A DNA stretch of 64,000 nucleotides from an archaeon GW2011_AR15. Lineage in GTDB: Archaea; Nanobdellota; Nanobdellia; Woesearchaeales; GW2011-AR15. Location of the stretch: contig CP010425.1 in NCBI GenBank assembly GCA_000830295.1, forward strand, positions 768,001-832,000, given 5' to 3'. A program made the translations under genes and the position numbers. Below the pieces are notes generated by a model. That model did no database searches. It saw only the letters and a program-made list of their open reading frames with translations, and had not been told where the DNA came from. This document shows positions 42,255 to 64,000 of this stretch, in pieces; position 1 is the stretch's first letter; each line of letters starts with the position of its first letter.

Positions 42255-42263
42255 TTTAATCTA

Positions 42264-45749: not shown

Positions 45750-47219
45750 ATGGAACTAAAAGGCTATCATTATCTGATTTTAGGGCTGCTGCTGGCATTT
45801 GCTTTTTTCAGCACATACAGTGAAACGCATTTGGAGTATCCCTTCCCATACCATCATGATGAATGGCAGCACCTCGGCATCTCAATGCAGGCAATGGAAG
45901 AGGGATATAATAAAGTATATAATCCATTTCTTGGGGCCCCTGGATGGCATGCAGATCTCGAGTCAGGATTCCACCTGTTTTTGGCAAACATATTCCTCAT
46001 GACAGGTCTTAATCCTGTTCTGAGCTACCAGTACCTTGCTGCTATATTTGCAGTAATTACAGGATTTGTCATTTTTCTCTGTGTTTACAGGCTTACAGGC
46101 AAATTTTATGCCGGAATTCTTGCATTAATTGTGTTTATCTCTTTAAAATCTAATGTAAATATACTTGGAAAAAGCTATTTTGTGCCTATGACAATGGCAA
46201 TGCCCTTTATCTTCCTCTTTATCCTTTTCTTCCTCACCTCCCTGAAAGAGAAAAGCCATAAGAAATTCCTTTTTTCCTTTGTCCTGCTGTTTTTGATTTT
46301 CCTGATACATCCGCCGTCTGCAATCATACTCGGGATTCCTGTGCTCGTTGAAATCCTCTTCAATATTGGCTTTATGGAGAAGATATATGAAAAATTCAGG
46401 TTTTTTTTTCTTGCGCTGCCTTTTTTTGCCCTTTTGGTATTTCTCCTGCTCTGGAAAGGGGAATGGCAGGCAACTCTTGGCTATTTTTCAGACCTGCTGG
46501 TCTTTGAGCAGGGATGGGGGAAAATTGAGATTGCATATTTCCTGCCCGCATTGTACGGATGGGCGGCGACCTTGTTTGCAGTCTACGGGTTTGTAGTGGC
46601 CAATAAAATGAAATTAAGATTCTTCATGATATTTGCATTTGTTTCAATAGGCATGACTGCTTTTTTCAATATCTTTGGGTTTGCAGTAGTGATACCTTAT
46701 TCAAGGGCAATCCATTACTCTATGCTTTCTCTTCTCCCACTGACGGCACTGGGGGTTTTAAGCGCATTACAATTAGTATACAGGAAGATTGAAAATAATG
46801 ATGCATTGCAGACCCTGGCTTGCTTTGTATTTCTCCTGATAGTTGTCAGTTCCTCTTATACTCTTGACACGCAGTATAAGACCTATGGGCAGCTTCCACT
46901 GGATAGGCAGGATTACAATGCACTTATATGGATAAAAGAAACTTATGGTTCTGATAATGTTCTTGTTACGCCGTATTTCATGACGTCTGCAGTTTATCCT
47001 GTAAGCGGAAGCAAGGCAATCTCCCTGATACCTTCGCAGATGGGTGGTGGCCTTATAGAAGAAAACCTGAACTTCTACACATATACCTGCGATAAGCAGG
47101 AAGAAATTGCAGGGCAGGCAAATGCAAGCCTTGTACTGAGCAAGCTTCCCATAGAGTGCAGTTTTCTGGAACAGGTTTATTCAAGAGGGGATTTTGTCTA
47201 TTCTGTAAGAACTATTTAA
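45750..47219 (+). CDS. GT-C-fold-like integral membrane glycosyltransferase
   Basis: More than 10 TM helices, first-loop HHDEWQH acidic motif, C-terminal soluble domain (ALIWIK). Confidence 0.65.
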   Translation: MELKGYHYLILGLLLAFAFFSTYSETHLEYPFPYHHDEWQHLGISMQAMEEGYNKVYNPFLGAPGWHADLESGFHLFLANIFLMTGLNPVLSYQYLAAIFAVITGFVIFLCVYRLTGKFYAGILALIVFISLKSNVNILGKSYFVPMTMAMPFIFLFILFFLTSLKEKSHKKFLFSFVLLFLIFLIHPPSAIILGIPVLVEILFNIGFMEKIYEKFRFFFLALPFFALLVFLLLWKGEWQATLGYFSDLLVFEQGWGKIEIAYFLPALYGWAATLFAVYGFVVANKMKLRFFMIFAFVSIGMTAFFNIFGFAVVIPYSRAIHYSMLSLLPLTALGVLSALQLVYRKIENNDALQTLACFVFLLIVVSSSYTLDTQYKTYGQLPLDRQDYNALIWIKETYGSDNVLVTPYFMTSAVYPVSGSKAISLIPSQMGGGLIEENLNFYTYTCDKQEEIAGQANASLVLSKLPIECSFLEQVYSRGDFVYSVRTI

Positions 47220-48834
47220 GAAGCTTCTGAAGCGTTTTTCCGAATTTGGTCTTCCCTATTGAATAGGTTAATTTGAAAAGTGGATATGTAACAGAATTTC
47301 TCAGTTCTCCAAGGCGTTTTTCCAGGAAATCCACTTTCTGCTTAAACGCCTTCAGCTCTTTCTCAGTACTATTCTTCTCAGCTTTCAGAGTTTCCCAGGA
47401 GGTAATAAGGCCGTTTATCTCAGCATCCCTTTCTATCAATATTTTTTCAAGCTCGTGTTGTTTTTCCTTTAAATCTGATGCTTTCATTTTTCTTGACTCT
47501 ATCTCTTCCTGAAGATTTAGGATATGCTTATCCCTCTTTTCTATCTCTTCTTCCAGCTTTTTTATGCTACCCTCCTTCCTGTCCCTTTCATCCCTCAGGC
47601 TCATGAACACCTCGCGCCTGCTGTCCAGTAGCTGGCTATGCCGGAACTCAGTTTTTGTCTTGTCAACAGACGGCTTCCAGCAGAAATTATCCAGAGGGCC
47701 GACCAGCTTATCCCATGCGTTATCAGAAACAAATTTCTCAATGTTCTTTTTCATAGCAGCCTTGTCTTTTTCACTTAATTTTAAAACCACGCTGGCAGTC
47801 TCTTCCGGAGTTTTTCCATCAATAACAACTCCTGTCTGGTATCTTTTCACCAGCTCTGCGACAGTATCCCCGCCGCTTACAATAACAGGCAGCCTGCCGT
47901 ACATTGCCTCGGAGACCCTTGTCCTGTAGGATAATTCTGTCTCCAGTATGCCCTGCGGATAAGTTGCAATGAACAAGTCAGATTCGTTATAGATGCTATC
48001 AATATCCTCATAATCAGCATAGTCAAACAAAAAGACGGACTTGTTCAGCATTTTCTTATCTTTCACGAACCTGTAGAATTTGTTATAATTATCTTCGTAA
48101 AGTTTTTTGTAGACAAACGGGCTCTGTGCCCCGACAACAGCCAGAACATACTTATCACTTTTCTTCGAGATTTCATGCATTATTCTCGCTGTCTGCATAG
48201 GGTCAAGCCAGTTGAAGAAAGTGCTCATCCACAAAATTATTTTTTTATCTCCAGGAATAGCTTTTCTCAGAATCTTTTTTTTCCCAAGGGGCTTTCCTGA
48301 TTTCACACCGAAGGGGACAATTCCAACAAGATTTCTTTTCCTATTATATGGGTTTACTCTCCCCACGGCAGCCAGCATTCCAAGATAATACCTTCTTTGC
48401 CTTTCACTCGCACAGATGAAATAATCACCGTACTGGAAGGGAATCAGGGTTGAAAGGAATATGTCATCTGTAAACCTCCAGAAATCACTTTGTGTTTTCT
48501 TATAATCGTAATGGATATGTTCAAGAAGGTAAGGGGCATAGACATCAACAACAATTGGGATTTTTACCCTGCTCAGGAATTCATGGTCATCAAACCATAT
48601 CTGTATAAAGGCGACATCGTATTTTCTTATGCCTTTAAGTATCTGTGCAGGAATGTAGCTGATGAATCTTATATTCTCCCTGGTAAGCTCCTTTCCCCTG
48701 TCCTTTTCAGCAATAGTAACCTTATGCCCTTTTTTTGTAAGGGCTTTGGCTAATTCCCATAACCTGATGCTTGGTCCAAAGGTCTTCCCGTCAGAAAAAA
48801 CCTTCTTGTGGCTGAACATGATTATCTTAGACAT
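47212..48834 (-). CDS. GT4-family glycosyltransferase with a C-terminal coiled coil
   Basis: GPSIRLWELAKAL, ETELSYRTRVSEAMYGRLPVI, about 90-aa heptad region, basic amphipathic tail. Confidence 0.82.
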   Translation of the reverse strand: MSKIIMFSHKKVFSDGKTFGPSIRLWELAKALTKKGHKVTIAEKDRGKELTRENIRFISYIPAQILKGIRKYDVAFIQIWFDDHEFLSRVKIPIVVDVYAPYLLEHIHYDYKKTQSDFWRFTDDIFLSTLIPFQYGDYFICASERQRRYYLGMLAAVGRVNPYNRKRNLVGIVPFGVKSGKPLGKKKILRKAIPGDKKIILWMSTFFNWLDPMQTARIMHEISKKSDKYVLAVVGAQSPFVYKKLYEDNYNKFYRFVKDKKMLNKSVFLFDYADYEDIDSIYNESDLFIATYPQGILETELSYRTRVSEAMYGRLPVIVSGGDTVAELVKRYQTGVVIDGKTPEETASVVLKLSEKDKAAMKKNIEKFVSDNAWDKLVGPLDNFCWKPSVDKTKTEFRHSQLLDSRREVFMSLRDERDRKEGSIKKLEEEIEKRDKHILNLQEEIESRKMKASDLKEKQHELEKILIERDAEINGLITSWETLKAEKNSTEKELKAFKQKVDFLEKRLGELRNSVTYPLFKLTYSIGKTKFGKTLQKLLK

Positions 48835-48937
48835 TTTACCCCTTTGGAATAGAAAAACTATATAAAAAGCTTGTGAATAGACAAATAGACCAGCAACAGG
48901 AAAGGTATTTGCAGTGGGGTGGACCCCTCATGCTTCC

Positions 48938-50146
48938 CTATAGCAGCTTGCTGATTTTGATTAGCTTTTTCTGCAGGGGAGTCATTTTCTCTATTTCCCT
49001 GTGGAATATGAGGTTCCAGCCAAGGTTGTCGCAGCAATACAGGCAGCCGTTGCCGGTCTGTGTCGTGTTTCCTATGTTGTTGAAATATGGGTCCTTTACG
49101 TCATAGTCAATTGTATGTTTCCTGAAAGTGCATTGTTTTTTTCCTGACCAGATTTTCTTTATACTTTTTTCATAAATATTCCCTACTGGTATTCTTCCGG
49201 ACTTAAGGCAGGAATTCACTTCCCCGGTTGCCAGTATTCTCAAAAAGTTGAAGCCGGCATAGCATGGGATTTTTCCTATTATGCTCTTGTCATATATTCC
49301 TTTTTCTGTCTCTCCTTCAAGCCTCCTTAGGAATTGCTCAGGCTGCTTGAATATTATTTTGTGGCCATATTGCTTTTCCCAGGCATGTATTTTTGGCCGG
49401 ATATTCCTCATTTTCCCAGCCAGCAAATTCCTCTGTTCCTCATTGAGCATAAGACTGTCTGTCATTCCAGGAACAATATCTGTAGGGGTGAATTCAACAG
49501 CATCTGCCCTTACTTTAAATGCAAGCTCAACCATGTTTTCGAAGTCATAATAGTTCTCTGTGGAAATTACATGATACAGAGTTAGCTTTGGCTTGTCTGT
49601 CCTGTATTTTTTCTTCAGAAAATGCAGGTAATTCAGCGTATCCACAATCCTGTGAAATGTCTTTTCTGTCTGGTTTGGGTGGGTTCTTGAATATGCTTCA
49701 GGAGAGCCTGCCCAGAGACTGCAGTTCATATGGTCTATTTTTGCTTTTACTATTCTCCTGGCTTTCTCTTTTGTTATCAGCGTCATGTTGTTGCTCATGT
49801 CCACATTCATGCCTTTCTTCTTTACATATTCCATAATATCAACAGCATTTGGGTGCATAAAAGGCTCTCCTCCGCCTGTGAAATAAATCTCCCTTGTGTT
49901 CATGTCAGCCAGGTCATCAACTAGTTTCTTTACAAGCCTGTAGGGAAGCTCTTTTTTCCTCGTCTCCTTATCCATAGTCTCAAATCCGACAAGAGGAGAA
50001 AAGGACCAGCAGGAAATGCAGTCATTGTTGCAGTGGTTGGTAAGGTCAAGGTGCACAGAATAAGGCCCGGTGATTGGCTTTTTCTCAAGTATTCCTGCTA
50101 TTATCCTGTATTTCTGGGCTTTATCCTTCAGGCTGTAGAATGGCAT
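48938..50146 (-). CDS. Radical SAM protein with a SPASM/Twitch domain
   Basis: CNNDCISC, TGGGEPF, PCYAG...GEVNSC, C-terminal CLYCCDN. Confidence 0.93.
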   Translation of the reverse strand: MPFYSLKDKAQKYRIIAGILEKKPITGPYSVHLDLTNHCNNDCISCWSFSPLVGFETMDKETRKKELPYRLVKKLVDDLADMNTREIYFTGGGEPFMHPNAVDIMEYVKKKGMNVDMSNNMTLITKEKARRIVKAKIDHMNCSLWAGSPEAYSRTHPNQTEKTFHRIVDTLNYLHFLKKKYRTDKPKLTLYHVISTENYYDFENMVELAFKVRADAVEFTPTDIVPGMTDSLMLNEEQRNLLAGKMRNIRPKIHAWEKQYGHKIIFKQPEQFLRRLEGETEKGIYDKSIIGKIPCYAGFNFLRILATGEVNSCLKSGRIPVGNIYEKSIKKIWSGKKQCTFRKHTIDYDVKDPYFNNIGNTTQTGNGCLYCCDNLGWNLIFHREIEKMTPLQKKLIKISKLL

Positions 50147-50174
50147 ATATTACATAAATAATACTCAAGTATTA

Positions 50175-51026
50175 TTATGCTTTTTGCAAAGACTTCAGGT
50201 AAAAACCGATATCATAAAACTCATTATAAAAAAAGCCAGGGAGAGTTACTATGCTTAAGCCCAGCTTTAGGCTCATGAGTTCCTTAAACAGAAAAACAAG
50301 AGTAATATAAGGGTTATATACCAAGAGACGCATCATCACTCCGGCAAAGCTGTCCGGAAGAGGATAGCCATGGAAGGTCCACTTTCTTGCGGCTCTTATC
50401 ACGCTGGAAAAAGTATCCTCTTTTAGATGATAGCAGGCTGCATCAGGCTCATAAACAATATCAAATCCGCTTTTCTTCAGCCGTCTTGAGACATCAACAT
50501 CTTCGTAATTTGTAGTGTATTTCTCATCATATCCCCCAATTTTTCTAAGAGCGGAGATTCTGAAAACAGTATTGGCTCCAAAAAGGAAATTCGGGTTAGT
50601 TATCTTTTGGTTTCCCCAGTTTTGCTTTAAATGAAAAGAGCGCCATTTGTCTGCCAATGCTTTCTTATTCTTTTCTATAAGTTTTCCGCCAACCCCGGCT
50701 ACCCCCTTTTTATCAAAATCCTTCATAATTTCTTTCAGCCAGCCTTTTTCAAGAACACAGTCAGAATCAACAGCAGCAATAAGTTCTGTCATACAGTTTC
50801 TCAGCGCAAGGTTTCTTGCAGCAGCAAGATTTTGCCGTCCTAAGTTGAGAACCCTGACTTTGAATTTTTTCGCAATCTTGACTGTATTGTCAGCTGAATT
50901 GTTATCCACTACCAGGATATTCTTCGGGGATATTTCCTGCTTCAATATGCTTTCTATGCATTTTCCTATTGTCTTTTCAGAATTCAGGGCAGGGAGGTAG
51001 AACGTGATGCTAAATGTTGTATTCAT
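50175..51026 (-). CDS. GT2-family glycosyltransferase
   Basis: PALNSE, VDNNSAD, AARN, VDSDC, YEDVD. Confidence 0.93.
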   Translation of the reverse strand: MNTTFSITFYLPALNSEKTIGKCIESILKQEISPKNILVVDNNSADNTVKIAKKFKVRVLNLGRQNLAAARNLALRNCMTELIAAVDSDCVLEKGWLKEIMKDFDKKGVAGVGGKLIEKNKKALADKWRSFHLKQNWGNQKITNPNFLFGANTVFRISALRKIGGYDEKYTTNYEDVDVSRRLKKSGFDIVYEPDAACYHLKEDTFSSVIRAARKWTFHGYPLPDSFAGVMMRLLVYNPYITLVFLFKELMSLKLGLSIVTLPGFFYNEFYDIGFYLKSLQKA

Positions 51027-52879
51027 CTTGGCTTTTCTCCCTCGATAAATATCTTATGCCAGAGTATAAAATTTGTCACAGACCAGAGCTGCCTTGAGTA
51101 ATATAAACTTGTAAGCCTGTTGAAACTCAGCAGCCTGCCTGAGAGCATCCTGTCGCTTGAGAGCAGCCTGTCAACATAGCTTTTTTTGAAGAACCTGTCT
51201 ACGATATCTTTTTTCTCGTCCAGGATATTTCTTGCATACTCGCCGAAATCCTGCTTGTACCATGTGTCTGTCGGGACCATAAAGCGCATTTTTTTCTTTT
51301 TGATTGTGCTCTTAGGCAGGAAGTCTTTCATGGCCTGCCTTATAATGTATTTTTCAGTCATGAGATTTATCTTATATTGTTCAGGGAGAGAAGCAGAGAA
51401 TTCAGCAAGAGTATGGTCACAGAATGGGACACGGCCTTCAATAGAGTTTGCCATTGTCACCTTGTCATATTTCAGGAGCATATCATCAGGCAGATATGTT
51501 TTCATATCGTGATATATCATCTTGTTAACAAGACCCTCCTGGCCTCTGAAATTTTTTCTTATCATCCCAAGCGATGACTCTTTCACATTATCCTTCAGCA
51601 GCACCTTTTTTTCGTCCTTGCTGAAAACAGAGCTGATGTTCAGGAAAGCTGCCGCATCATCAGATTCAAGAAAATCTTTTGTTTTCATGAAAAAAGGCTC
51701 TCTTGGCAGGAGATTAAGGCTAAGGCCGCCCGCTTGTTTAATGAACCTTGGAATTTTTTTCATTGCTTTCATTATCCTGTACTGCTCATACCCTGCAAAA
51801 ATCTCATCTGCACCGTCACCATTAAGGAGAACCCTGATATCCTTTGAAGCTTTCTCCGCAAGCACATAATTTGATATCACGATAGGGTCTGCAAGCGGCT
51901 CATCCATATGCCATGTTATTTTAGGAAGAAGACTTATGTAGCTAGAATCTATTGTGCACTCATGATGCTCTGTCCCGAATTTTTCAGCTATAACCCTGGC
52001 ATCTTCAAACTCATTTTTTAAGCCATCTTCAAAGCCGAGAGTGTAGGTATCTATTTTTTCATCAGTATTCTTTCTCATCATTGCAACAATTGAGCTGGAA
52101 TCTATGCCTCCAGAAAGCAAGGCTCCCACAGGAACATCGCTTATCATCCTGTATTTTACCGATTGTTCAAATAACTGCAGGAATTGCTTCTTGTAATATT
52201 CCAGGGACTTGTTTCCGGGAGAAAAAGTCACATCCCAGTATTTTTTGATAGAGATGCCTCTTGAATTATAAACAAGATAATGGCCCGGGTTTAGCTTGTA
52301 GATCTCTTTCAGCATTGTCTCCTCGCCTGAGCAATATCTGAAGCTGAAGTAGCCGTCAAGAAGATTCTCATTCAGTTTCCTGTCTATTTCCTTGTGCTCC
52401 AGTATCGCCTTTATTTCAGAGGCAAAGATGAATTTTGAACCATCGTGGAAGTAATAGAGCGGCTTTATCCCGAGTCTGTCACGGGCAATAAAAAGTTCTT
52501 TTTTTTCTGTGTCATACAGCGCAAACGCAAACATGCCGTTGAAATAATTCAGGCATTCTTTCCCATATTCTTCATAGCTGTGCACAATAACTTCAGTGTC
52601 AGTATCTGTGTAGAATCTGTGGCCTTTTTTTTCAAGCTTCTCCCTCAAATCTGAAGCGTTGTATATCTCCCCGTTAAAGAACAGGACAATGCTATGGTCT
52701 TCATTGAATATCGGCTGGTTTCCTCCCTTGATGTCTATGATGCTTAACCGGGTGTAGCCCAATGTAAACTTTTCGTCAGAATAAGTGTCAGCATGGTCTG
52801 GCCCCCTATGATTGAGAATTTTTGCCATTGCGGCAGCTAGCTTCCTATCGCTGAAATTAAAACCGAATATCCCGCACAT
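51023..52879 (-). CDS. asnB: Asparagine synthetase B-like glutamine amidotransferase
   Basis: MCGIFG (nucleophilic Cys), HRGPD, FNGEIYN, SGGIDS, GDGADE. Confidence 0.93.
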   Translation of the reverse strand: MCGIFGFNFSDRKLAAAMAKILNHRGPDHADTYSDEKFTLGYTRLSIIDIKGGNQPIFNEDHSIVLFFNGEIYNASDLREKLEKKGHRFYTDTDTEVIVHSYEEYGKECLNYFNGMFAFALYDTEKKELFIARDRLGIKPLYYFHDGSKFIFASEIKAILEHKEIDRKLNENLLDGYFSFRYCSGEETMLKEIYKLNPGHYLVYNSRGISIKKYWDVTFSPGNKSLEYYKKQFLQLFEQSVKYRMISDVPVGALLSGGIDSSSIVAMMRKNTDEKIDTYTLGFEDGLKNEFEDARVIAEKFGTEHHECTIDSSYISLLPKITWHMDEPLADPIVISNYVLAEKASKDIRVLLNGDGADEIFAGYEQYRIMKAMKKIPRFIKQAGGLSLNLLPREPFFMKTKDFLESDDAAAFLNISSVFSKDEKKVLLKDNVKESSLGMIRKNFRGQEGLVNKMIYHDMKTYLPDDMLLKYDKVTMANSIEGRVPFCDHTLAEFSASLPEQYKINLMTEKYIIRQAMKDFLPKSTIKKKKMRFMVPTDTWYKQDFGEYARNILDEKKDIVDRFFKKSYVDRLLSSDRMLSGRLLSFNRLTSLYYSRQLWSVTNFILWHKIFIEGEKPR

Positions 52880-52919
52880 TTAAAGAATAATTGTAATCAA
52901 GATATAAATAAGTTACTCC

Positions 52920-55536: not shown

Positions 55537-55582
55537 ATAGTCCCCCTCAGCAGAATAATCTCCACAATTAAAAAGATTTGGC

Positions 55583-57730
55583 TTATTCTATATATAGGCC
55601 GATAGTGCTTATTATTTTGCCGAACCCAAGCTTCTGGTTTTCAAAGTCATCTATTTTTACCCATACTCTGCCAGATCTCAGAATCTGGTGGTTTATGCTG
55701 AACCTGTATACAATCCACTTCTGATGCCCTGATATGGTAACTCCGCCGATATTGAACCATTCCCTATTATCATAGCTGAGGAATATCTTTATTGGCCCGG
55801 ATTTCGCCTGCCCGAAAGAGTTGTCCCAGATTTTTATTTTCAGCACAAGGTCAATTTTCTTTTCAAAACAAGTCCCGGGAGTCTTTAGCACGATGCCGGC
55901 CCACCCGAGGAATGCCCTTGCATTTTCCCCGTGCATTATATTATCTTTTCCGCCGTAGCACATGCTTTCTGCCGGAGTTTTTATTACCCATGAGCCCAAC
56001 GGCTCGTGGCTAAGCTCGCTTTTTCTAATGCCAAGATGGACAGTATCAACAGTTTTTCTTTCTTCAATAAACCTTTTGATTTTGCTGTAGATCGGATTCT
56101 GTCTTTCTGGTTTTGCCAGTAGGGGCTGGGGAGCCTGCGCTGCTGCTTCCACTGTCTTTTCCGGCATTTGTGTTGGCTCTTCTTTTTCTCCGGACAGGAT
56201 GCTTTCAGGGTTGGGATGGTATAATGTTCCGTCAATATCAGCAATCTGCTTCTTGAAAAAGTCAAATTTTTCCTCAAATGACGGCTCGCTGCCGCCCCCT
56301 TCCAATGCCAGCATGGTCGCTTCCTTGGCTTCCTTGAGGTTGGTCTCAAGCATTGGGATGTCAAGCTCTTTTAGCAGGGCCAGCATCCTTTTTGTCCTGT
56401 CCTTCCTGACCTCATATGTGTTTTCCCCGTTGTCAGAAACCCAGTGTATGTGCCTGAAGGCTTCATCCAGTATCTTTATGCCGAATTCCTCGCGCTTCTC
56501 ATAGACATCTGTATCGTCTATAAGGTGAAGCATGTTCACGGATTTGACTGCTGTGAGGTATTTCCTGTTCTTTCTTATGAAATCCAGAGTCATCTGGAAC
56601 TCTTCCTCTCCCTCTCCCGGATAGCCAATCATGGTGAAAATGAAGATAGGGATGCCCACTTCATGGGTTCTCTTTAATGTCCCCTCTATTATTTCTCTTG
56701 TGTATGGTTTCCTCATGTTCCTCAGCACTTTGTCTGAGCCGGATTCAACGCCATATTCAATCTTGTAGCACCCTGATTTCTTCATTTTTGTAAGGAGCTC
56801 TGTCGTCATCCTGTTGGAAGGTATTGCCTGGCCGAACCATTTTATTTTTAGATTTTTCTGGAGTATGAGGTCGCAGACCTTTTCGAGCTTCTTTATATCC
56901 CCATTGAAAGTCGGGTCAGTTACAGTGAACTTTGTAATCCCGTTATTCCTGACATGGTATTCAATCTCTCCCACAATGTTCTCCGGCTCCCTGTACCTGT
57001 AGCCCTCCCACAGTCCTTTTATCTTGCAGAAAGCGCAGTTGGCAGTGCATCCTCTTGACCATTCAAGAGTGAGGGATTGCGTTGTATATTGTGTTAAGTC
57101 AAATCCCCTGTAGGTCGGGAAGGGGAATTCATCAACATCTTCTTTGTGGGGCCGCGGCGAATAGCTGGAATATTTTCCGTTCTTGTGAGTGATCAACCCG
57201 GGTATGTTTTCAAGGGGCTTTCCTTTTTTGCATGCATCAAGAATATCGAGGAGGGTATCTTCCCCTTCATTTACAACATAGGCATCCACAAGATTAGGAA
57301 GCCTCTCCACAAATATCTTCCTTGAATCTTCGGTTGAGCAGGCAGGCCCGCCGAGGAGTATTATTTTTTCCGGAATCTTCTCTTTTATCCTCTTGATAAG
57401 CTCGATAGTTATCCTTTCCTTTGGGTCAACCACAGAAAAACCGACGATTGTTGCATTGCTGTCAAGAATCCTTCTGGCTGCGTAATCAATCAGCTGGTTG
57501 ATGTGCTGTTTAAGTATGTCAAAAGTATAGTCGTTCCTCCAGAAATTTTTGTTCTCGAAATGCCAGAGGTATTTCAGGGAATCATCTGTGTTGTTATGGA
57601 CATAAATATTGAAGTCAAATACCTCAACCCTGATTCCCTTTGATTCCAGGAAAGTAGACAGGTAGGCAATTCCTGTAGGAGGGTTGTCCACACCCCATGG
57701 AGGCGGGTTTACTAGGATAATATCTTTAAT
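55583..57730 (-). CDS. Cobalamin-binding radical SAM protein with a C-terminal beta-sandwich domain (probable ATT start)
   Basis: DIILVNPPPWGVDNPPTG, LGGP, NEGE, SRGCTANCAFC, GVESGS, IGYPGE; the homologous N-terminus extends 13 codons upstream of the track start. Confidence 0.9.
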   Translation of the reverse strand: MKDIILVNPPPWGVDNPPTGIAYLSTFLESKGIRVEVFDFNIYVHNNTDDSLKYLWHFENKNFWRNDYTFDILKQHINQLIDYAARRILDSNATIVGFSVVDPKERITIELIKRIKEKIPEKIILLGGPACSTEDSRKIFVERLPNLVDAYVVNEGEDTLLDILDACKKGKPLENIPGLITHKNGKYSSYSPRPHKEDVDEFPFPTYRGFDLTQYTTQSLTLEWSRGCTANCAFCKIKGLWEGYRYREPENIVGEIEYHVRNNGITKFTVTDPTFNGDIKKLEKVCDLILQKNLKIKWFGQAIPSNRMTTELLTKMKKSGCYKIEYGVESGSDKVLRNMRKPYTREIIEGTLKRTHEVGIPIFIFTMIGYPGEGEEEFQMTLDFIRKNRKYLTAVKSVNMLHLIDDTDVYEKREEFGIKILDEAFRHIHWVSDNGENTYEVRKDRTKRMLALLKELDIPMLETNLKEAKEATMLALEGGGSEPSFEEKFDFFKKQIADIDGTLYHPNPESILSGEKEEPTQMPEKTVEAAAQAPQPLLAKPERQNPIYSKIKRFIEERKTVDTVHLGIRKSELSHEPLGSWVIKTPAESMCYGGKDNIMHGENARAFLGWAGIVLKTPGTCFEKKIDLVLKIKIWDNSFGQAKSGPIKIFLSYDNREWFNIGGVTISGHQKWIVYRFSINHQILRSGRVWVKIDDFENQKLGFGKIISTIGLYIE

Positions 57731-60700
57731 TTTTTCTTCACCTCTGCTGGTTTTTTCTTTGCCTGCTCATCATAAAGATTCACGAGGGGAGTCTGCACGC
57801 CAAGTTCTTTGCAGAGTGCTGCTATCCTCTTTACCCTTTCTTTCCTTATCTCATAAGTGTTAGTCAGATCTGAAGTATGCCACTTGTAAAACCCGTCATT
57901 TTCATTAGGCACAACAATTCCTGCCTTTTCCGGCTCGGCTGTAAGATTTGTTCCTGCTATTAATAAACATGGAGTAAGGCTTGAAATCATCTTTATATAT
58001 TTGGCGTGGCTCTTTACAAAATCATAAGTTTCCATAAATTCTTTTTCGCCTTCACCAGGGTATCCGATTATAAGGTTTATGCCGATAGTTATTCCTGCAT
58101 TGTGCATCCTCGGCAGCAGGTCCTGCAGATGTTTCATCCTGTAGGGCTTGTTCATTTTCTCAAGCACGGTATCAGAGCAGCTTTCAACACCGAACACCAT
58201 CACTCTACAGCCGGCCATCCTCATTTTCCTCAAAAGCTGGTCTGACATTCTTGAGTTTACAATTCCCTGGGCAGACCAGTTTACCTCCAGGTTCCTCTTT
58301 ATTATATGGTTGCAGATCTCTTCCAGAGCCTTCAGATTCCCGTTGATGACAAGGTCCCTGAAATTAAAGCTGTTAACCCCGTAGTTTTTTATGTGCATCT
58401 CCATCTCATCCACGACATCCTTGGCAGGCCTTGCAGTGTAATTTGCCCTGTACATCCAGTCAAGGCAGAAATTGCATCTTGCGACACATCCCCTGCTGGC
58501 TATCATAGGAAGGGAATTTTCTTTGTATTTTTTCAGGTTAAATTCCATAAAAGTAGGAGATGCCAGTTCTCCAAGGTCCTTTTCAAAATGCCATGGATGC
58601 ATCTTCTCTTTTTCTTTTCTCGGGCCTAATTCCCCAGAGCTGTTGGCTTTTAACACAACCACGCCAGGCAAGTCTTCAATCGGCTGATTTTCTTTTAATC
58701 TTTGGACTATTCTCGGCATCATTAACTCCGCTTCCCCTATCACAGCGAAGTCAATATAATCCTTCATTTCAGACTGCCAGAAATAGCCATCGTCGCTGTT
58801 AGGGCCGCCTATGCATATCTTTAGCTCAGGATTGTTTTTCTTGAGGATCTTTGCCAGCATGCATGAAAAATTATAATTAGCAGCATTTACAGACAGGCCT
58901 ACAAGCACAGGCTTGTCATCCATGATCCGCTTTATCATATTGTTCATATATGGTTTATAATTCTGGAAGAGGTATTCGTGGAATTTTTCTTCAGACCATT
59001 TGAAATATTCCTCCATGTGCCATGCCCTCTTATCATTTTCAGGCGCAAGATTATAGAGGTCAATATTCATATCAAAGACTTCAGTTTTTACTCCGTGCTT
59101 TTTCAGGTTTGAAGCAAGGTATGCAATGCCGAGAGGAGGCATCAGGACATCCCACGGCGGGCACATGATGAGGAAGACGTCGGTTTTTCTCACTATCTCT
59201 TTTTCTTTATACCCGGCAAAAGCAGAGAGATTATCTTCATATACCTCAAGATTTAATTCTTTGGCAAGATTAAGTAATCTTCTTAATCTCCCTTTTCTTA
59301 TGCTGTCTGTATTAGTTCCGTCTTTTGTCCTCCACCTGACTTCAGCTACACTATTATCTTCAGGCAGGATAATCCCATATTCGTCTTTGTTTTCCATGAG
59401 TTCTGAGTTGTATACAACATTGCAGGTTTTTGCATTGCAAATTCTATCAATGTACTGCCTATTTCTTTTTATGAAATCAAGGGTCATCTGGAAATCCTCT
59501 TCTGTTTCCCCAGGATAGCCTACTATGAAGTTTGGCTGGGCATTAATCCCCATTTCATAGGAATATTTCAGAACTTTCTCTATTGTTTCAATAGTTGTGT
59601 ATTTTTTCATTGCTTTCAATATCCTATCAGATCCGGTCTCAACACCGAACATCAAAACATCACACCCGGCCCGCTTCATCTTTTCCAGCAATTTCTGTGT
59701 AAGATTTTTCATTGGTATGGCATTGGCAACCCACCCTATTTTCAACTTATGACTTATAATAAGATCACAGAATTTATTTAGTTCGGGTATATTGCCATTT
59801 ATCAGCAAATCACTAAAATTAAATTTAGTAATTCCTTTCTGGACATGATAATAAATCTCCTGGAATACCTGCTCAGCAGGCCTTACCCTGAACTTTCCCA
59901 TTATATTCACATCATTGCAGAAAGTACATTCTCCAATGCATCCTTTAGAAAAATAGAGGGCAATCCTCTCCTGGGCGATATAATCTTTATTGTAGTCTAT
60001 TTTCAGGGCTTTAGACTTGCTTAGGTCAAATGCTTCCCTTTCTTTAAACTTTCCTTCATGCCGGAAGATAAAAATACCGGGAATACCTGAAATTTCAAGA
60101 TAGGTTTTTTTTGCTTTTATAGCATCCACCAGTTCTATAATTGCTTCCTCTCCATCTCCAACCACAAAATAATCTATGGTTGACTTCCTGAATCTTTCCA
60201 GTTCTCTCTTTACAGAGCATGAAGGCCCGCCGACTACAATTTTTACATTATTATCAATATTCTTAATTAATTTAGCTAATTCTATGATCATTAATGTATT
60301 TTCCTGATAGGCGGAAAATCCGATAACTCTGGATGTCTGCACCAATTCTTTTGCAAATTCAACCAAATCCACCTTAAATCTCTTTTTTAATTCTTCAAAG
60401 AAAGGATATTCTGTCCAGTTGATTTTTAAATCCTGGTGCCAGTATTTCTGCAGGTCTTTATGGCGCCTATACAGCTTTAGATTTATATCACATATCTCCG
60501 CATTGAGTCCATGTGAAACCATATATTCTTTCAGGTAATTTACCCCAGTCGGCGGAGTATTCACTCCCCATACAGGGCAGACAACAAGTGCCAGATCCAC
60601 AGGTTCATTCTTTTTCTTGTCCTCCCCTGACTGCGATAGATTTGAGAAATACACATCATAGCCGAGCTCTTTTACAAATTCATACGCTCTTTTTGCCCTG

Positions 60701-62013
60701 TCTAACCTTACTTCATAAGTAAGCGTTCCGTCTGACCACGCTACAGGGTCAGTACTCGTTATTCCCAGCCTTCCGGAAGCAAGGCCTATAGGCGCTCTTT
60801 TGGGAAGAATGCAGGTATTGATGTTAGTTATACCTGTTATCACATCCCTGTTCCTTTTTATGAACTGGAGAGTCTCCTGGAACTCCTCTTCCGTCTCTCC
60901 AGGATAGCCGACTATAAAGTTTGGCTGCACATTGATTCCTGCCTCCCTTGTCCACTTCATTATCCTTTCTGCATCTTCTGCTGAAAACATCTCATACTTA
61001 TTCATCTTCTTGAGCACAGAGTTTGAGCCTGACTCAATCCCGAAATTAATAGTGTAGCAGCCGGCGTCCGCCATTTTGAAGAGAAGCTCTTTCGGCATGT
61101 CCTTTCTTGCAATGGCCAGGCATATCCATTTTATTTTCAGGTTGTTTCCGATTATCAGGTTGCATAATTTTTCCAGTTCTTCATAGTTTCCGTTTATTGC
61201 AAGGTCATGGAACCAAAAATGTGCAATCCTGTTTACATAGGCATGATATCTTAGTTCATTATAGACATCGACTGGGTCTCTTGTCCTGTGGTGGCCCTGG
61301 AACGGCTTGTCCTCACAGAATCCGCAGTTTGCTATGCATCCCTGTGAGAACCTCATGCCTATTGTCTTTTCAGTATATCTGGACAGGTCGAGTTCTTCAT
61401 AGGTAGGGAAGGGAAGTTTTTCCAGGTCAATAAGCTGTCTTGGAGCATATTTCTCAGGATATTTGCTTGATTTCAGACCTTTTATTTCTGATAGTTGCTC
61501 AATAGATTTTCCTCTCTTTATTCCCTGCATAAGCTCAAGAATTGTATCCTCTCCTTCCCCAACAACAAAAAAATCAGCATAATCCTTGTAATATTCCCTT
61601 TCTTCAGGCAGCCATACGCCCTTCCCGCCGAGGATTATTTTTATGTCTTTGTCTAGGAATTTTACAGATTTCATCAGCTCAAAGGAGTAGAAAATGCTTG
61701 CTGCGGATATTGAAAACCCAAGGGCAAGCGGTTTTTCATCCGCTATTCTTCTGGCGAGTTTCTCAAAATCAAACTTCAGCAGAGGCTTCAGCTTTTCAAA
61801 CCTGTCTTTCTCCATCCAGAAATGGGCTTTTTCGTTTATCCAGTATCCCTTATCCTTTGCCCGATGATATTCCTCTATATTCAGGTCCAGTATCTTTGTT
61901 GCTATGTCATTTACCCTAAGGTATCTGGAGATGGATGCCAGGCTCATCGGAGGCATGTTTATTCCCCATACAGGGCACTGAATCAGGAGTATATCCGGTT
62001 GTATGCATATCAC
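57712..62013 (-). CDS. Triple tandem cobalamin-binding/radical SAM protein (1433 aa)
   Basis: Three modules, each with CP.W...PP, GG[KP], G[ED][GA]E, GCxxxCxFC (CIANCGFC, CIGECTFC, CVARCNFC), G[IV]E[ST], GYPGE. Confidence 0.93.
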   Translation of the reverse strand: MICIQPDILLIQCPVWGINMPPMSLASISRYLRVNDIATKILDLNIEEYHRAKDKGYWINEKAHFWMEKDRFEKLKPLLKFDFEKLARRIADEKPLALGFSISAASIFYSFELMKSVKFLDKDIKIILGGKGVWLPEEREYYKDYADFFVVGEGEDTILELMQGIKRGKSIEQLSEIKGLKSSKYPEKYAPRQLIDLEKLPFPTYEELDLSRYTEKTIGMRFSQGCIANCGFCEDKPFQGHHRTRDPVDVYNELRYHAYVNRIAHFWFHDLAINGNYEELEKLCNLIIGNNLKIKWICLAIARKDMPKELLFKMADAGCYTINFGIESGSNSVLKKMNKYEMFSAEDAERIMKWTREAGINVQPNFIVGYPGETEEEFQETLQFIKRNRDVITGITNINTCILPKRAPIGLASGRLGITSTDPVAWSDGTLTYEVRLDRAKRAYEFVKELGYDVYFSNLSQSGEDKKKNEPVDLALVVCPVWGVNTPPTGVNYLKEYMVSHGLNAEICDINLKLYRRHKDLQKYWHQDLKINWTEYPFFEELKKRFKVDLVEFAKELVQTSRVIGFSAYQENTLMIIELAKLIKNIDNNVKIVVGGPSCSVKRELERFRKSTIDYFVVGDGEEAIIELVDAIKAKKTYLEISGIPGIFIFRHEGKFKEREAFDLSKSKALKIDYNKDYIAQERIALYFSKGCIGECTFCNDVNIMGKFRVRPAEQVFQEIYYHVQKGITKFNFSDLLINGNIPELNKFCDLIISHKLKIGWVANAIPMKNLTQKLLEKMKRAGCDVLMFGVETGSDRILKAMKKYTTIETIEKVLKYSYEMGINAQPNFIVGYPGETEEDFQMTLDFIKRNRQYIDRICNAKTCNVVYNSELMENKDEYGIILPEDNSVAEVRWRTKDGTNTDSIRKGRLRRLLNLAKELNLEVYEDNLSAFAGYKEKEIVRKTDVFLIMCPPWDVLMPPLGIAYLASNLKKHGVKTEVFDMNIDLYNLAPENDKRAWHMEEYFKWSEEKFHEYLFQNYKPYMNNMIKRIMDDKPVLVGLSVNAANYNFSCMLAKILKKNNPELKICIGGPNSDDGYFWQSEMKDYIDFAVIGEAELMMPRIVQRLKENQPIEDLPGVVVLKANSSGELGPRKEKEKMHPWHFEKDLGELASPTFMEFNLKKYKENSLPMIASRGCVARCNFCLDWMYRANYTARPAKDVVDEMEMHIKNYGVNSFNFRDLVINGNLKALEEICNHIIKRNLEVNWSAQGIVNSRMSDQLLRKMRMAGCRVMVFGVESCSDTVLEKMNKPYRMKHLQDLLPRMHNAGITIGINLIIGYPGEGEKEFMETYDFVKSHAKYIKMISSLTPCLLIAGTNLTAEPEKAGIVVPNENDGFYKWHTSDLTNTYEIRKERVKRIAALCKELGVQTPLVNLYDEQAKKKPAEVKKKLKILS

Positions 62014-62087
62014 CCTCAGCTACAGAATACTTAGGATTTTATATAATATACGAAAAACATAAATAAACTTAATTTAATTAAGTAGTC

Positions 62088-63953
62088 ATGGGGTTTTTTG
62101 GAGGTATTGTCTTAAAAGACAGGAATCTACCTGCCGGGCTGCTCACAAAACCGGAGAAAATCGGGGAGTTACGGTTCAGCGCCGGCAAAAAACTGGTCAA
62201 AAAGAGGAATTTGGCCGTATACTTATCAGGAAGCATAACAGACTTGTTTACAGAAGATTACAAGCTGCCGCTTAACCATCAGGAAGAGCTTATTTTGGAT
62301 ATGTATACCAGATATGGCGAGAAATTCATCAGATTCCTTGATGGTTATTTCGTAATTTTTGTTTATGATATTAAAAGAGGAGAGTTCTTTATATTTAATA
62401 ACAGGTATTCAAACACTTTTTGCTATTACTATCTCTCTGATGATTTTCTTGTTTTCTCTGATATGATTAAGCCCCTGCTTAAGCTAACCCCAAATAAAGA
62501 AGTCAATAAAGAGGTAATAAGCCTTTTCCTGAATTCAGGATTCTCTTTCTCTGAAAGAACCCCATTTAAGCATATCTACAGGATGATACCCGGCTTCTAT
62601 CTTAAATCAAAGAAAGGCAAAATAAGCCATGTCAGGTATTCAGGAATGGAGTTTAACAGGAGACCAGTTAAAGATGTGCCAAGGGCGCTGGAAGAGTACG
62701 AAAGACTATGGGTAGATGCCATAAAAAAATTTACAAAATATAATAAGACCGGGAATCTCGGAAGTGCGCTTAGCGGAGGCCTCGACACTTCATGGGTTGT
62801 GCTGGCAGCCTCAAAAGCATTTGACAAGCCGGTCCATACATACAACTGCTACTATGATTTCACTCTTTTTAATGAAATCAGACCTGCTTCTTATGTCACA
62901 AGAAAATGCAAAGGAAAATTCCACAAGATAAAGGTTTCTGAGGAGGATATAGATCTTTGGCCTGAGATAATAAGGGCTGCTGAGGAGCCAGTCATGTCAT
63001 CTTCTGTTTCCATATATAAAATGATAAGGGAAGCAGGGAAGGAAATCGATACTTTCCTCACAGGAGATGGGGGGAACAACATATATCACCACCTTTATCC
63101 GGTCGGGGAGATACATAGATATATCCACTTCCTGCCATATTTTGTCAGGAAAGCGATGTATGAAATTATTGATTTTACCGCAAATCTTACAAGCTGGGAA
63201 AGGCTATGGGAGCTGAAATATGCATTCCGCCCGTTTTCATATAAAAACCCCTATCGGAATTTCTATAAGAACCTGATATGCTACAGGCACTTCAGCCCTG
63301 AGCAGAGAGATAAGCTGCTTAACCCAGAGTTCCACGAGGAGTTTGATGAAGAAAAATCATTGGGCTATATCCCAATCAGGAAGGAAAGTTTTGATAATGA
63401 TCTTGTTGACAACAGATTCGTGCACGGGAATATGGAATATGTAAGCACATTCCAGGAGAAATTTGTAAAGAAATTCGGCATGAGGCTGTTCCCGCCATAC
63501 CAGAATAAGAAAATAATGGATTTTCTCTGCTCCCTTCCTTTTAATTTGTTATTCAGGGCCAACAGTCTTCAGAAGCTTACCAATAAAGCAAACAAGATGC
63601 ATTTCCAGAAGCTCTCTCTGTTAAGGTATTTCCCTAAGTCCTTTGTCTACAAAACAGGACAGCCCTTTGACCAGCCCTTTCACGGATGGCTGCAGAGAAG
63701 GCCTGAAGTCGTAAGATTGCTCTTCGAAAGATTGAAAAGAAGAGGATGGTATAATAATGATTATTTGGATGAACTTTACAGAGAGCATAGGAGACAGCGC
63801 CAGCATAAAAAAATACTCTGCCAGCTCCAGAACCATGGATACAGAATAATGACTCTGCTTGCTCTCGAGATATGGTGTATGGAATTCCTTGACAGGGACC
63901 CGGAAAAAGAAACCCAGAGGATGCCGCTTGAGGAGTATCTGAAAATAAGATGA
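62088..63953 (+). CDS. Asparagine-synthetase-like amide ligase lacking the glutaminase Cys
   Basis: N-terminus MGFFGG instead of MCG; SGGLDTS ATP motif; GDGGNN instead of GxGADE. Confidence 0.85.
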   Translation: MGFFGGIVLKDRNLPAGLLTKPEKIGELRFSAGKKLVKKRNLAVYLSGSITDLFTEDYKLPLNHQEELILDMYTRYGEKFIRFLDGYFVIFVYDIKRGEFFIFNNRYSNTFCYYYLSDDFLVFSDMIKPLLKLTPNKEVNKEVISLFLNSGFSFSERTPFKHIYRMIPGFYLKSKKGKISHVRYSGMEFNRRPVKDVPRALEEYERLWVDAIKKFTKYNKTGNLGSALSGGLDTSWVVLAASKAFDKPVHTYNCYYDFTLFNEIRPASYVTRKCKGKFHKIKVSEEDIDLWPEIIRAAEEPVMSSSVSIYKMIREAGKEIDTFLTGDGGNNIYHHLYPVGEIHRYIHFLPYFVRKAMYEIIDFTANLTSWERLWELKYAFRPFSYKNPYRNFYKNLICYRHFSPEQRDKLLNPEFHEEFDEEKSLGYIPIRKESFDNDLVDNRFVHGNMEYVSTFQEKFVKKFGMRLFPPYQNKKIMDFLCSLPFNLLFRANSLQKLTNKANKMHFQKLSLLRYFPKSFVYKTGQPFDQPFHGWLQRRPEVVRLLFERLKRRGWYNNDYLDELYREHRRQRQHKKILCQLQNHGYRIMTLLALEIWCMEFLDRDPEKETQRMPLEEYLKIR

Positions 63954-64000
63954 AAAAAATGAAAGTCATGTTTGTAATTTCTCCAGACAGCAACAAGGGG
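63950..64000 (+). CDS. Start of the next gene (truncated), possibly another B12/radical SAM or glycosyltransferase
   Basis: ATGA overlap with the previous stop; MKKMKVMFVISPDSNKG resembles a Rossmann-type first strand. Confidence 0.5.
   Translation, partial: MKKMKVMFVISPDSNKG

Follow-up and report, generated by a model that had tools for sequence, protein, structure and literature searches.

A radical SAM-rich gene island in a Woesearchaeota-type archaeon: a probable surface-glycan locus with radical tailoring enzymes

Why should a 1.16 Mb genome set aside some 4% of its sequence, along with half of all its radical S-adenosylmethionine (rSAM) domains, for what appears to be a single glycan locus? 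The question is raised by archaeon GW2011_AR15 and by a 64,000-nucleotide stretch of its contig CP010425.1 (genome positions 768001-832000; "the window" in what follows, a window coordinate being the genome position minus 768000). A preliminary description of the window, made from its letters alone, singled out a cluster at 45750-64000 crowded with rSAM and B12-binding genes, and took it to build a heavily C-methylated and amidated glycan or glycolipid, perhaps attached to the pilins encoded next door. The answer offered here shares part of that view: the island is probably a pathway of the ABC-transporter (Wzm/Wzt) type for a surface glycan or glycoconjugate, the sugars of which are tailored by radical chemistry.

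The single-contig genome (1,157,790 bp, 96.8% complete; G000 below) is that of a DPANN-type (Woesearchaeota-type) groundwater archaeon, because its small-subunit rRNA scores 1426 bits with the archaeal model and 1088 bits with the bacterial one, and because close homologues carry the names 'Candidatus Woesearchaeota archaeon' or 'Nanoarchaeota archaeon'. The island begins at window position 45750 and ends at genome position 861,927, some 30 kb beyond the window; it takes up 48,178 bp (4.2% of the genome) and has a GC content of 0.398, as against 0.425 for the genome as a whole. Thirteen of the genome's 25 Radical_SAM matches lie within 31,972 bp, or 2.8% of the genome (binomial P 2e-14), and seven of its eight B12-binding matches are in the island: a density of rSAM domains far beyond chance. 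Genes in the window were called as open reading frames (ORFs) and then scanned with Pfam and NCBIfam. Every item that the preliminary description had listed at 45750-64000 was confirmed in this way, and its count of seven CX3CX2C motifs is correct. As it had also said, the scans find no nucleoside diphosphate (NDP)-sugar synthesis genes inside the window and no convincing precursor peptide; in the island as a whole there is no precursor candidate, the only small ORFs (68 and 64 amino acids) encoding hydrophobic membrane peptides. Its observation that the cluster continues beyond the window was, if anything, understated: six further rSAM domains, a PMT_2 GT-C protein, Wzm/Wzt and others follow up to 861,927 (Table 1). 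Past that end lie unrelated genes, including one for a MiaB-like tRNA enzyme with UPF0004 and TRAM domains.

The case for a glycan is made most directly at the far end of the island. An ABC-2 permease, an ATPase with a Wzt_C domain, and flanking GT2 and GT4 glycosyltransferase (GT) genes together form the gene set of ABC-transporter-dependent glycan export. The island as a whole has six GT2/GT4 genes and three GT-C-like membrane proteins (8-10 transmembrane helices), one of them a PMT_2 member. That member, PMT578, qualifies as a PMT_2/GT39-like GT-C protein by its Pfam scores, and its gene is abutted by that of B12_479 and overlapped by that of B12_467. The GT-C-like transferase that the preliminary description had placed at 45750 (TM489) fares less well: it is polytopic and has an Atlas lead to GT-C proteins, but no Pfam match. 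Compared with Atlas clusters bearing PMT_2/STT3, it gives feature values of 0.98-0.99 and structural TM-scores of 0.67-0.81 (a lead only); TM489 and TM547 together are placed among PMT_2/STT3/GT39-like clusters with feature values of 0.97-0.99 and TM-scores of 0.54-0.81 (likewise leads). The tail of GT4cc540, roughly residues 400-515, is a long, heptad-rich coiled coil with SMC-type matches at residues 401-514, and recalls the coiled-coil chain-length ruler of WbdD. In the Wzm gene an alignment of 249 residues shows an unbroken frame. (Its homology extends in frame, with no stop codon, over the 42 codons that precede the first ATG, GTG or TTG, and the gene probably has an unusual start codon.)

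A second line of evidence joins the rSAM enzymes to the glycosyltransferases physically. Fusions were traced by local BLAST of island proteins against the ORFs of relatives, three of which, G002 and G005 (same genus) and G012 (another genus), had their clusters annotated in detail. One G012 protein of 683 residues joins GT2_305 (57% identity) to SPASM391 (60%) (it is recorded as P0001, with GT2, rSAM and SPASM Pfam domains); a second, of 635 residues, joins a PMT578-like N-terminal membrane half (33%) to a module-1 rSAM core (65%); and a third, of 1426 residues, strings together rSAM341 (54%), a B12_702-like segment (37%) and rSAM565 (53%). B12_486 (62%) is combined with B12_702 (38%) in a 964-residue protein of G005, and B12x3 (39%) with B12_702 (31%) in a 2098-residue protein of G002. 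The chain of fusions links all the rSAM subfamilies of the island to one another, and two of them directly to glycosyltransferases. The protein database adds P0022, an 819-residue GT4 plus rSAM/SPASM protein, as well as B12-SPASM fusions and 36 multi-module proteins of 872-2358 residues from Woese/Nanoarchaeota, Omnitrophica, Myxococcales, Ca. Lernaella and Ca. Alcyoniella; 14 of the 36 are named, all with generic labels such as 'radical SAM protein'. (A separate observation on G012: at L105:6746-7330 on the minus strand it has a stand-alone 194-residue B12-binding ORF, 55% identical to residues 5-182 of B12x3_1433; this ORF and the rSAM core 25 kb away, now fused to the PMT_2 half, are a module that was split and re-fused.)

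Does the gene combination recur? B12x3_1433 was searched against 40 relatives (E<=1e-20): 17 of the 19 other genomes of the same family have matches, as do 28 of the 41 genomes overall, G000 included, and the matching open frames reach about 2100 residues and more. All three annotated clusters contain Wzm/Wzt, GT2, GT4, PMT_2, AsnB and AsnB-like, B12-binding rSAM, SPASM-rSAM, CysD-like and phosphodiesterase genes. The place of TM489 is taken in G002 by an orthologue with 49% identity; the GT4cc540 orthologues of G002 and G012 keep the coiled-coil tail; AsnB618 is kept within the glycan clusters of relatives; and orthologues of AsnBlike621, 55-56% identical, are present in the G002 and G005 clusters. 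Other contents come and go. Among the three, the carbamoyltransferase and arylsulfotransferases are found in G002 only, G012 has a sulfotransferase of the phosphoadenosine phosphosulfate (PAPS) type, G005 has a sulfatase-family gene, and NDP-sugar epimerase/dehydratase and UDP-sugar dehydrogenase genes occur in some. Island content thus differs among close relatives in the manner of surface-antigen loci. Further afield, loci in G003, G016, G028 and G033 each combine B12-binding rSAM genes with GT2 and/or PMT_2 GT-C genes, and three of the four also have AsnB or sugar-nucleotide enzymes.

The reach of the system can be gauged from B12_467. Among the loci compared, four relatives have orthologues of it with 65-71% identity. 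Of 401 genomes sampled from the phylum, 107 have a homologue (E<=1e-60), as do 89 of 281 genera (tallies that include the unpublished G266 and G341). Six more distant loci around such homologues, in other families and orders, all have GT2; NDP-sugar enzymes occur in five, PMT_2 in four (adjoining the rSAM gene in two) and a carbamoyltransferase in two. A conserved core is a small GT2, a B12_467/479-type rSAM protein and a PMT_2 GT-C. (LPG_synthase_TM-family membrane proteins also stand beside PMT_2 and B12-binding rSAM genes in distant relatives, at L112:13722-14678, L125:3256-4146 and L126:10748-11689.) The preliminary description had itself named what would speak against it, namely rSAM enzymes belonging to known housekeeping families in a combination that recurs nowhere else. 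Neither was found: no rSAM protein of the island reaches the cut-off of any NCBIfam family, housekeeping ones included, and the gene set recurs in all three annotated clusters, with B12-binding rSAM genes beside GT2 and/or PMT_2 genes in the four further loci and all six distant ones.

Bacteria furnish independent parallels. Other bacterial matches were mostly distant rSAM genes of enterobacteria and Pasteurellaceae, but GT and rSAM genes are associated in each of the three bacterial loci examined: one Omnitrophota locus (L024) has a GT2-rSAM fusion (643 residues) adjoining an ABC-2 exporter, and also three B12-binding rSAM proteins; another (L025) has a GT2-GT4-rSAM-SPASM fusion of 1675 residues plus B12-SPASM fusions; and in a Nitrospirae metagenome-assembled genome (L023), B12-binding rSAM genes lie between a carbamoyltransferase gene and a GT2-GT4 fusion. 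(In the last, fliS, at L023:86-454 on the plus strand, directly adjoins the locus, which may be a flagellin-glycosylation island.) One can go further and think of the modular megaenzymes, with two to four B12-binding rSAM modules and in some cases SPASM-rSAM, GT2, GT4 or GT-C parts as well, as an assembly line: arising in DPANN archaea and independently in Omnitrophota, Nitrospirae and other uncultivated bacteria, they would act on lipid-linked sugars or the growing glycan and place several C-methyl or ring-rearranged sugars in each repeat, the product being a class of hyper-modified surface polysaccharide that lacks a characterised example, a carbohydrate counterpart of proteusin peptides. 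In a symbiont that imports its cobalamin, such a coat could set host attachment and resistance to glycosidases or viruses. All this is put forward tentatively, as a conjecture somewhat more apt to fail than to hold.

Table 1. Genes of the island in genome order (window and genome coordinates as marked; aa, amino acids; TM, transmembrane)
Feature	Position	Strand	Remarks
TM489, polytopic membrane protein, GT-C-like	window 45750-47219	+	489 aa; at least 8 TM helices; no Pfam match
GT4cc540, GT4 with C-terminal coiled coil	window 47212-48834	-	Glycos_transf_1 54 bits
SPASM402, rSAM + SPASM/Twitch-like	window 48938-50146	-	CX3CX2C at residue 39
GT2_283 glycosyltransferase	window 50175-51026	-	Glycos_transf_2 102 bits
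AsnB618, glutamine-dependent amidotransferase	window 51023-52879	-	TIGR01536 514 bits (cut-off 267)
SPASM404, rSAM + SPASM/Twitch-like	window 52920-54134	-	
SPASM472, rSAM + SPASM	window 54118-55536	-	
B12_702, B12-binding rSAM	window 55583-57691	-	702 aa; C-terminal extension of about 240 aa without Pfam match
B12x3_1433, three complete B12-binding + rSAM modules	window 57712-62013	-	1433 aa; CX3CX2C at residues 226, 692, 1176
AsnBlike621, Asn-synthase-domain ligase	window 62088-63953	+	Asn_synthase 94 bits, GATase_7 only 27 bits
B12_479, HpnJ/BchE-like B12-binding rSAM	window 63950 on; genome 831950-833389	+	479 aa; only the start lies in the window
PMT578, PMT_2 GT-C	genome 833390-835126	+	at least 10 TM helices; PMT_2 36.5 bits (cut-off 26.1), PMT 33.9 (22.7)
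B12_467	genome 835116-836519	-	
Arylsulfotransferase	genome 836749-837948	-	one N-terminal TM helix
CysD-like PP-loop protein	genome 837950-838756	-	NF003587, 280 bits
Alkaline-phosphatase-superfamily 'sulfatase'	genome 838803-840089	-	one N-terminal TM helix
Phosphodiesterase	genome 840086-841990	-	one N-terminal TM helix
Second 'sulfatase'	genome 842221-843498	+	one N-terminal TM helix
SPASM391, fourth SPASM-rSAM	genome 843490-844665	-	
Beta-helix protein	genome 844766-845899	+	one N-terminal TM helix
B12_486	genome 845922-847382	-	
rSAM341	genome 847407-848432	-	
rSAM565	genome 848433-850130	-	
GT4_387	genome 850156-851319	-	
TM547, GT-C-like	genome 851360-853003	-	547 aa; 10 TM helices; no Pfam match; Atlas leads
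Carbamoyltransferase, NodU-type	genome 853117-854793	+	
Wzt with Wzt_C	genome 854968-856935	-	Wzt_C 89.7 bits; ABC_tran 85 bits
Wzm	genome 856932 to about 857681	-	ABC2_membrane 45 bits; start codon uncertain
GT2_305	genome 857724-858641	-	
GT4_384	genome 858638-859792	-	
GT2_372	genome 859773-860891	-	
PGI/PMI-type isomerase	genome 860944-861927	-	

What chemistry might the rSAM enzymes bring to such a pathway? The class B layout (PF02310 followed by PF04055) is present in B12_702, in the three modules of B12x3_1433, and in B12_479, B12_467 and B12_486, which sort into two groups of paralogues. In the first, the three modules are 31-38% identical to one another and B12_702 is 35-36% identical to each; in the second, B12_479 (with the cluster motif CX4CX2C), B12_467 and B12_486 are about 30% identical mutually. 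A profile of the first group finds OxsB first among solved structures (89 bits, E 2.5e-24) and 9ccb next (80 bits, E 1.2e-21), with AprD4, RimO-type proteins, TsrM, CysS and TokK ranked lower. The models of characterised class B C-methyltransferases (KedN5, HpnR, PhpK, MgmA) all score under their cut-offs. For the second group, the highest-scoring NCBIfam models are HpnJ or BchE, matched over the full length with 200-262 bits, HpnJ being the best or second best for each protein; these scores fall short of the cut-offs of 577.6 (HpnJ, TIGR03471) and 481 (BchE), and the context differs as well, since Pfam scans of the island turned up no hopanoid genes and chlorophyll genes are likewise absent from it. 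B12_486 matches the AprD4 structure 6fd2 with E 1.9e-32, over residues 212-441 only, and scores 132 bits with the AprD4 family model (NF033070), the cut-off of which is 500; to judge by these matches it is a relative of AprD4 and not a member of the family.

Among the SPASM-type proteins, SPASM402 and SPASM404 are 65% identical and SPASM472 is 30-31% identical to either; these three and SPASM391 match PF13186 with 37-52 bits. A full SPASM domain has seven cysteines and a CX2CX5CX3C pattern. The C-terminal domains found here have only 5-6 cysteines and no such string, for which reason they would be reduced SPASM or Twitch-like domains. A family profile built on SPASM402, SPASM404 and SPASM391 has its best solved match in BtrN, at the auxiliary-cluster region (E 3.4e-12); the profile was needed to find it, a single-sequence search of the PDB with SPASM404 giving no match at E<=1e-5. 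(SPASM391 was also considered as an anaerobic sulfatase maturase and rejected: the neighbouring sulfatase-family proteins lack the C/S-x-P-x-R motif, the anSME match of the family profile is 29 bits, and the G012 counterpart is fused to GT2.)

The substrates of BtrN, AprD4, OxsB and HpnJ are in each case sugar rings or rings resembling them, and radical tailoring of sugar carbons by the island's enzymes is supported as an analogy. The likeness extends to layout (a B12-like domain plus rSAM, or rSAM plus Twitch/SPASM), which is shared with GenK/GenD1 as well as with BtrN, AprD4 and OxsB, the last three being the best solved relatives. The difference from these antibiotic enzymes is that those of the island are of low similarity to them and reach no cut-off, stand in the context of surface-polymer export, and have been multiplied and fused into proteins of three to four modules. 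The C-methylation of the preliminary description is on shakier ground: of the nearest solved relatives (OxsB, QCMT/MgmA, AprD4 and BtrN) QCMT alone is a C-methylase, and its substrate is a protein. OxsB contracts a ring and does not methylate, AprD4 is a diol dehydratase and BtrN a dehydrogenase. Methylases make up only a part of this structural class, so that C-methylation would be one possibility among several.

Amidation has a firmer footing. Two AsnB-like ligases are present, as the preliminary description had it, but one of them is glutaminase-dead: AsnB618 begins MCGIFG, with the Cys nucleophile of an AsnB/WbpS-type amidotransferase in place, while AsnBlike621 begins MGFFGG and, without that Cys, does not qualify as glutamine-dependent. 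An amidated glycan is plausible in view of the AsnB618 nucleophile and of UDP-sugar dehydrogenase genes elsewhere in the genome; of the amidated and C-methylated product first proposed, only the amidation is borne out to this degree. Outside the island the genome encodes AglB/STT3, four sugar nucleotidyltransferases and two UDP-sugar dehydrogenases.

The product might be decorated further. Four N-terminally anchored enzymes, the arylsulfotransferase and three alkaline-phosphatase-superfamily proteins, would by virtue of their anchors be located outside the membrane. The formylglycine motif C/S-x-P-x-R is missing from both sulfatase-family proteins, one of which has matches to phosphoethanolamine-transferase models as well; the two look like transferases or hydrolases of the alkaline phosphatase superfamily. 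None of the rSAM proteins of the island has a predicted transmembrane helix, and for that reason all 13 rSAM domains are probably cytoplasmic.

The following scheme, in which substrate, chemistry, order of steps and acceptor are our proposal, can be offered: 1) The glycosyltransferases would build a glycan on polyprenyl (dolichyl) phosphate at the cytoplasmic face, using NDP-sugars made by enzymes that are encoded outside the island. 2) The rSAM enzymes would alter unactivated carbons of nucleotide- or lipid-linked sugars: the four OxsB/QCMT-like B12 modules by C-methylation or ring rearrangement, the AprD4/HpnJ-like trio by deoxygenation or ring contraction, and the BtrN-like SPASM/Twitch set by oxidation or epimerisation. 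3) Uronic acids would be amidated by AsnB and carbamoyl groups added by the carbamoyltransferase. 4) The finished chain would be exported by Wzm/Wzt. 5) The GT-C proteins would move sugars, modified or not, from polyprenyl phosphate donors to the glycan or to surface proteins; this would take place outside the membrane, where the enzymes of sulfo and phospho transfer would add the final decoration. Because the trio of GT2, B12-binding rSAM and PMT_2 genes is conserved and a PMT-rSAM fusion exists, it is suggested that at least the B12_467/479-type enzymes modify a polyprenyl phosphate-linked monosaccharide before its transfer by a GT-C.

How does this compare with known systems? The E. coli O9a type of O-polysaccharide is exported by a Wzm/Wzt pair with a C-terminal carbohydrate-binding domain, in a pathway that also has WbdD with its coiled-coil ruler; the island resembles it in having Wzm, a Wzt_C-bearing Wzt, multiple GT2 and GT4 proteins and a GT4 with a long coiled-coil tail. 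It differs in residing in an archaeon (no lipid A, no WaaL), in its 13 rSAM domains, three GT-C-like proteins and N-terminally anchored sulfo- and phospho-transfer enzymes, and in that no chain terminator was identified in it. GtrA/GtrB/GtrC, ArnC/ArnT and Dol-P-Man/PMT exemplify three-component glycosylation at the outer face of the membrane. The island shares with them a small GT2 (some with C-terminal transmembrane helices) adjoining a PMT_2-type GT-C, an arrangement kept in relatives, and departs from them in placing a B12-binding rSAM gene within the module and, in one relative, in fusing an rSAM domain to the N-terminal half of the GT-C; we know of no described system so arranged. HpnJ converts hopanoid-linked glucosamine to a cyclitol ether; its substrate, a lipid-linked sugar, is comparable to the polyprenyl phosphate-sugar substrate proposed here, which would then be passed on to a PMT_2 GT-C. 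With moenomycin synthesis, the island has in common glycosyltransferases, a B12-binding rSAM protein and two AsnB-like genes, with nothing specific to support a closer kinship; no prenyltransferase turned up in Pfam scans of the island, though no MoeO5-specific model was applied.

A number of points weigh against the glycan-tailoring pathway. Because no curated cut-off of a characterised family is reached, each of the rSAM reactions above is one that we infer. A Pfam B12-binding match does not by itself prove bound cobalamin; AprD4 is not known to bind any. The GT-C identity of TM489 and TM547 is an Atlas lead. No priming phosphoglycosyltransferase was identified in the island, though no search was aimed at one. 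AsnB618 could serve a housekeeping function instead, because it is the sole full-length, canonical AsnB of the genome. In the PMT-rSAM fusion of G012, a crude hydropathy scan counts 7 transmembrane helices before the rSAM domain, probably with two helices run together as one. The datasets listed for window 54100-64000 include none of RNA, the DNA ones being groundwater and soil metagenomes. Finally, the top solved match of B12x3_1433 searched as a plain sequence is a protein methylase, 9ccb, and models of C-methyltransferases acting on peptides that ribosomes make and that are modified after translation (RiPPs; TIGR03975), together with ApyD, rank high among the NCBIfam matches. The accessible parts of PMC12931638 and PMC11796369 identify 9ccb as QCMT/MgmA, the glutamine C-methyltransferase of methyl-coenzyme M reductase.

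The last two of these points argue for the strongest of the rivals, in which a RiPP or a large surface protein (the 1068-residue presumed adhesin encoded nearby, for example) would be C-methylated, epimerised or crosslinked by the B12-binding rSAM and SPASM enzymes, to be glycosylated by the GTs afterwards. Large surface proteins do flank the clusters in G000, G002 and G005. AsnBlike621 is without its glutaminase Cys, as lasso cyclases are, and SPASM maturases commonly act on peptides. The maturation of proteusins (polytheonamide), the work of several B12-binding rSAM C-methyltransferases and an rSAM epimerase, offers a likeness in its many rSAM steps on one polymer and its several B12-binding rSAM paralogues that act together. 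The island differs from a proteusin or other RiPP cluster in what accompanies these enzymes. It has no precursor-like ORF, the intergenic gaps being 0-279 bp and the two smallest ORFs encoding the membrane peptides already mentioned; Pfam scans show no RiPP recognition, leader peptidase or NHLP-type gene; and the partners are glycosyltransferases and a glycan exporter. The fusion partners, too, are GT2, GT4 and PMT_2 and not peptide-binding domains, and the link with NDP-sugar enzymes and exporters holds phylum-wide. As to TIGR03975, its 323 bits are the sum over three modules, each contributing about a third, well below the cut-off of 282. Modification of a peptide or protein is, on balance, rather unlikely.

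Could the product be a secreted small-molecule glycoside, an antibiotic of the aminoglycoside, nucleoside or moenomycin kind, with no surface polymer involved? BtrN, AprD4 and OxsB, the nearest solved relatives, stem from antibiotic pathways, in which a carbamoyltransferase and paired AsnB-like enzymes also occur. This reading is nonetheless improbable: it sits badly with the glycan-binding Wzt_C domain, the three GT-C-like transferases and the four anchored decorating enzymes; no cyclitol or prenyl-phosphoglycerate genes appear in the Pfam scans; the system is widely spread through the phylum, in genomes of 0.6-2.1 Mb; and the way in which content differs between close relatives is that of surface-antigen loci.

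A lipid product is more improbable still. The rSAM enzymes would then methylate, cyclise or couple isoprenoid membrane lipids in the manner of Gmm, Grs, Tes or Mss, possibly lipids taken from a host. In its favour are the archaeal nature of the organism and weak matches, namely to Tes (54-56 bits), to a 'ladder' lipid B12-binding rSAM model (99-146 bits) and to HpnR; LPG_synthase_TM genes occur in some related loci; and Ger and MSL-synthase homologues have been reported from DPANN genomes (PMC13159169, in its accessible part). These scores are far under cut-offs of 360-650 bits, however, the fusion partners and conserved neighbours are glycosyltransferases and NDP-sugar enzymes, and no isoprenoid or ether-lipid genes were found in Pfam scans of the island. 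That the island is a chance gathering of unrelated housekeeping rSAM genes (tRNA or cofactor modification), as generic matches to MoaA, MiaB/RimO and AhbD/NirJ models might suggest, is effectively refuted by the sub-cut-off scores of all these matches, the genuine MiaB-like gene outside the island, the statistics of clustering, and the kept synteny and mutual fusion of the rSAM genes in relatives.

If the glycan pathway does depend on cobalamin, where does the cofactor come from? CobS was not found in the 96.8%-complete genome and a PduO-type cobalamin adenosyltransferase is present, for which reasons cobalamin is probably imported. The scavenging envisaged in the preliminary description accordingly fits, but not its restriction to surface chemistry: at genome 36956-42665 (L120:6956-12665), thyA, the PduO-type gene and two ribonucleotide-reductase large-subunit genes (673 and 682 residues) lie in a row, an order suggestive of a B12-dependent reduction of nucleotides even though no CobS was found, and cobalamin, because of this adjacency, is probably needed beyond the island. 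No cobalamin transporter was identified, FecCD being the one family tried (BtuF, ECF-CbrT and others were not searched); its sole match, a candidate for BtrC, was rejected, the gene being ZnuB beside ZnuA. Canonical sulfate activation was also considered and rejected, adenosine phosphosulfate (APS) kinase having been found in none of nine genomes (G000 and 8 family relatives). The CysD-like gene always adjoins one for a membrane-anchored nucleotide pyrophosphatase/phosphodiesterase (genome 837950-841990; L102:1062-3808; L107:7523-10467; L115:31-2045), and the pair may activate something other than sulfate.

A glycan export locus is an object of a known kind; its complement of rSAM tailoring enzymes is without precedent in the literature that was searched, most subscription journals lying outside the search. 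Within that scope no account was found of B12-binding rSAM enzymes in cell-surface glycan loci or in Woese/Pacearchaeota, nor any description of multi-module B12-binding rSAM or GT-rSAM fusion proteins. The words polysaccharide, glycan and fusion are absent from a 2026 review (PMC12931638), and 'radical SAM' has 0 occurrences in the accessible part of a 2026 preprint on 208 complete Nanobdellota genomes.

The product suggested by the island is a surface glycan, so far uncharacterised, that bears heavy and unusual decoration. B12-dependent rSAM enzymes are known from the making of antibiotics, cofactors, lipids and peptides. If those of the island act on the sugars of such a glycan, they would add a new substrate class for radical SAM chemistry, predict that ultra-small symbionts display novel branched or deoxy sugars, and link the envelope of such organisms with the cobalamin that their community supplies. 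The natural GT2-SPASM-rSAM and PMT-rSAM fusions are ready handles for finding the substrates.

There remain the island's neighbours. At window 39684-45470 (minus strand), after T2SSE/T2SSF genes, lie five small ORFs (135-245 residues, no Pfam match) and a gene for a 1068-residue Ig/fn3/PKD-like protein; the operon is presumed to encode an archaeal type IV pilus with an adhesin. A 1187-residue orthologue of the large protein flanks the G002 cluster. The suggestion that the glycan is attached to the adjacent pilins is not supported, nor is a link to the pilus operon: an orthologue of the pilus ATPase (75-77% identity) adjoins the cluster in only one of four relatives, G002, and is on a separate contig in G004, G005 and G012. 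Elsewhere in the window, a tRNA match at 1788-1896 (minus strand) spans 109 nucleotides against a 71-position model, the size expected of an intron-containing archaeal tRNA, with ordinary tRNAs nearby at 1448-1521, 1669-1741 and 2935-3008; and between 20001 and 22000 the GC content dips to 0.319, the flanks being at about 0.40-0.44.

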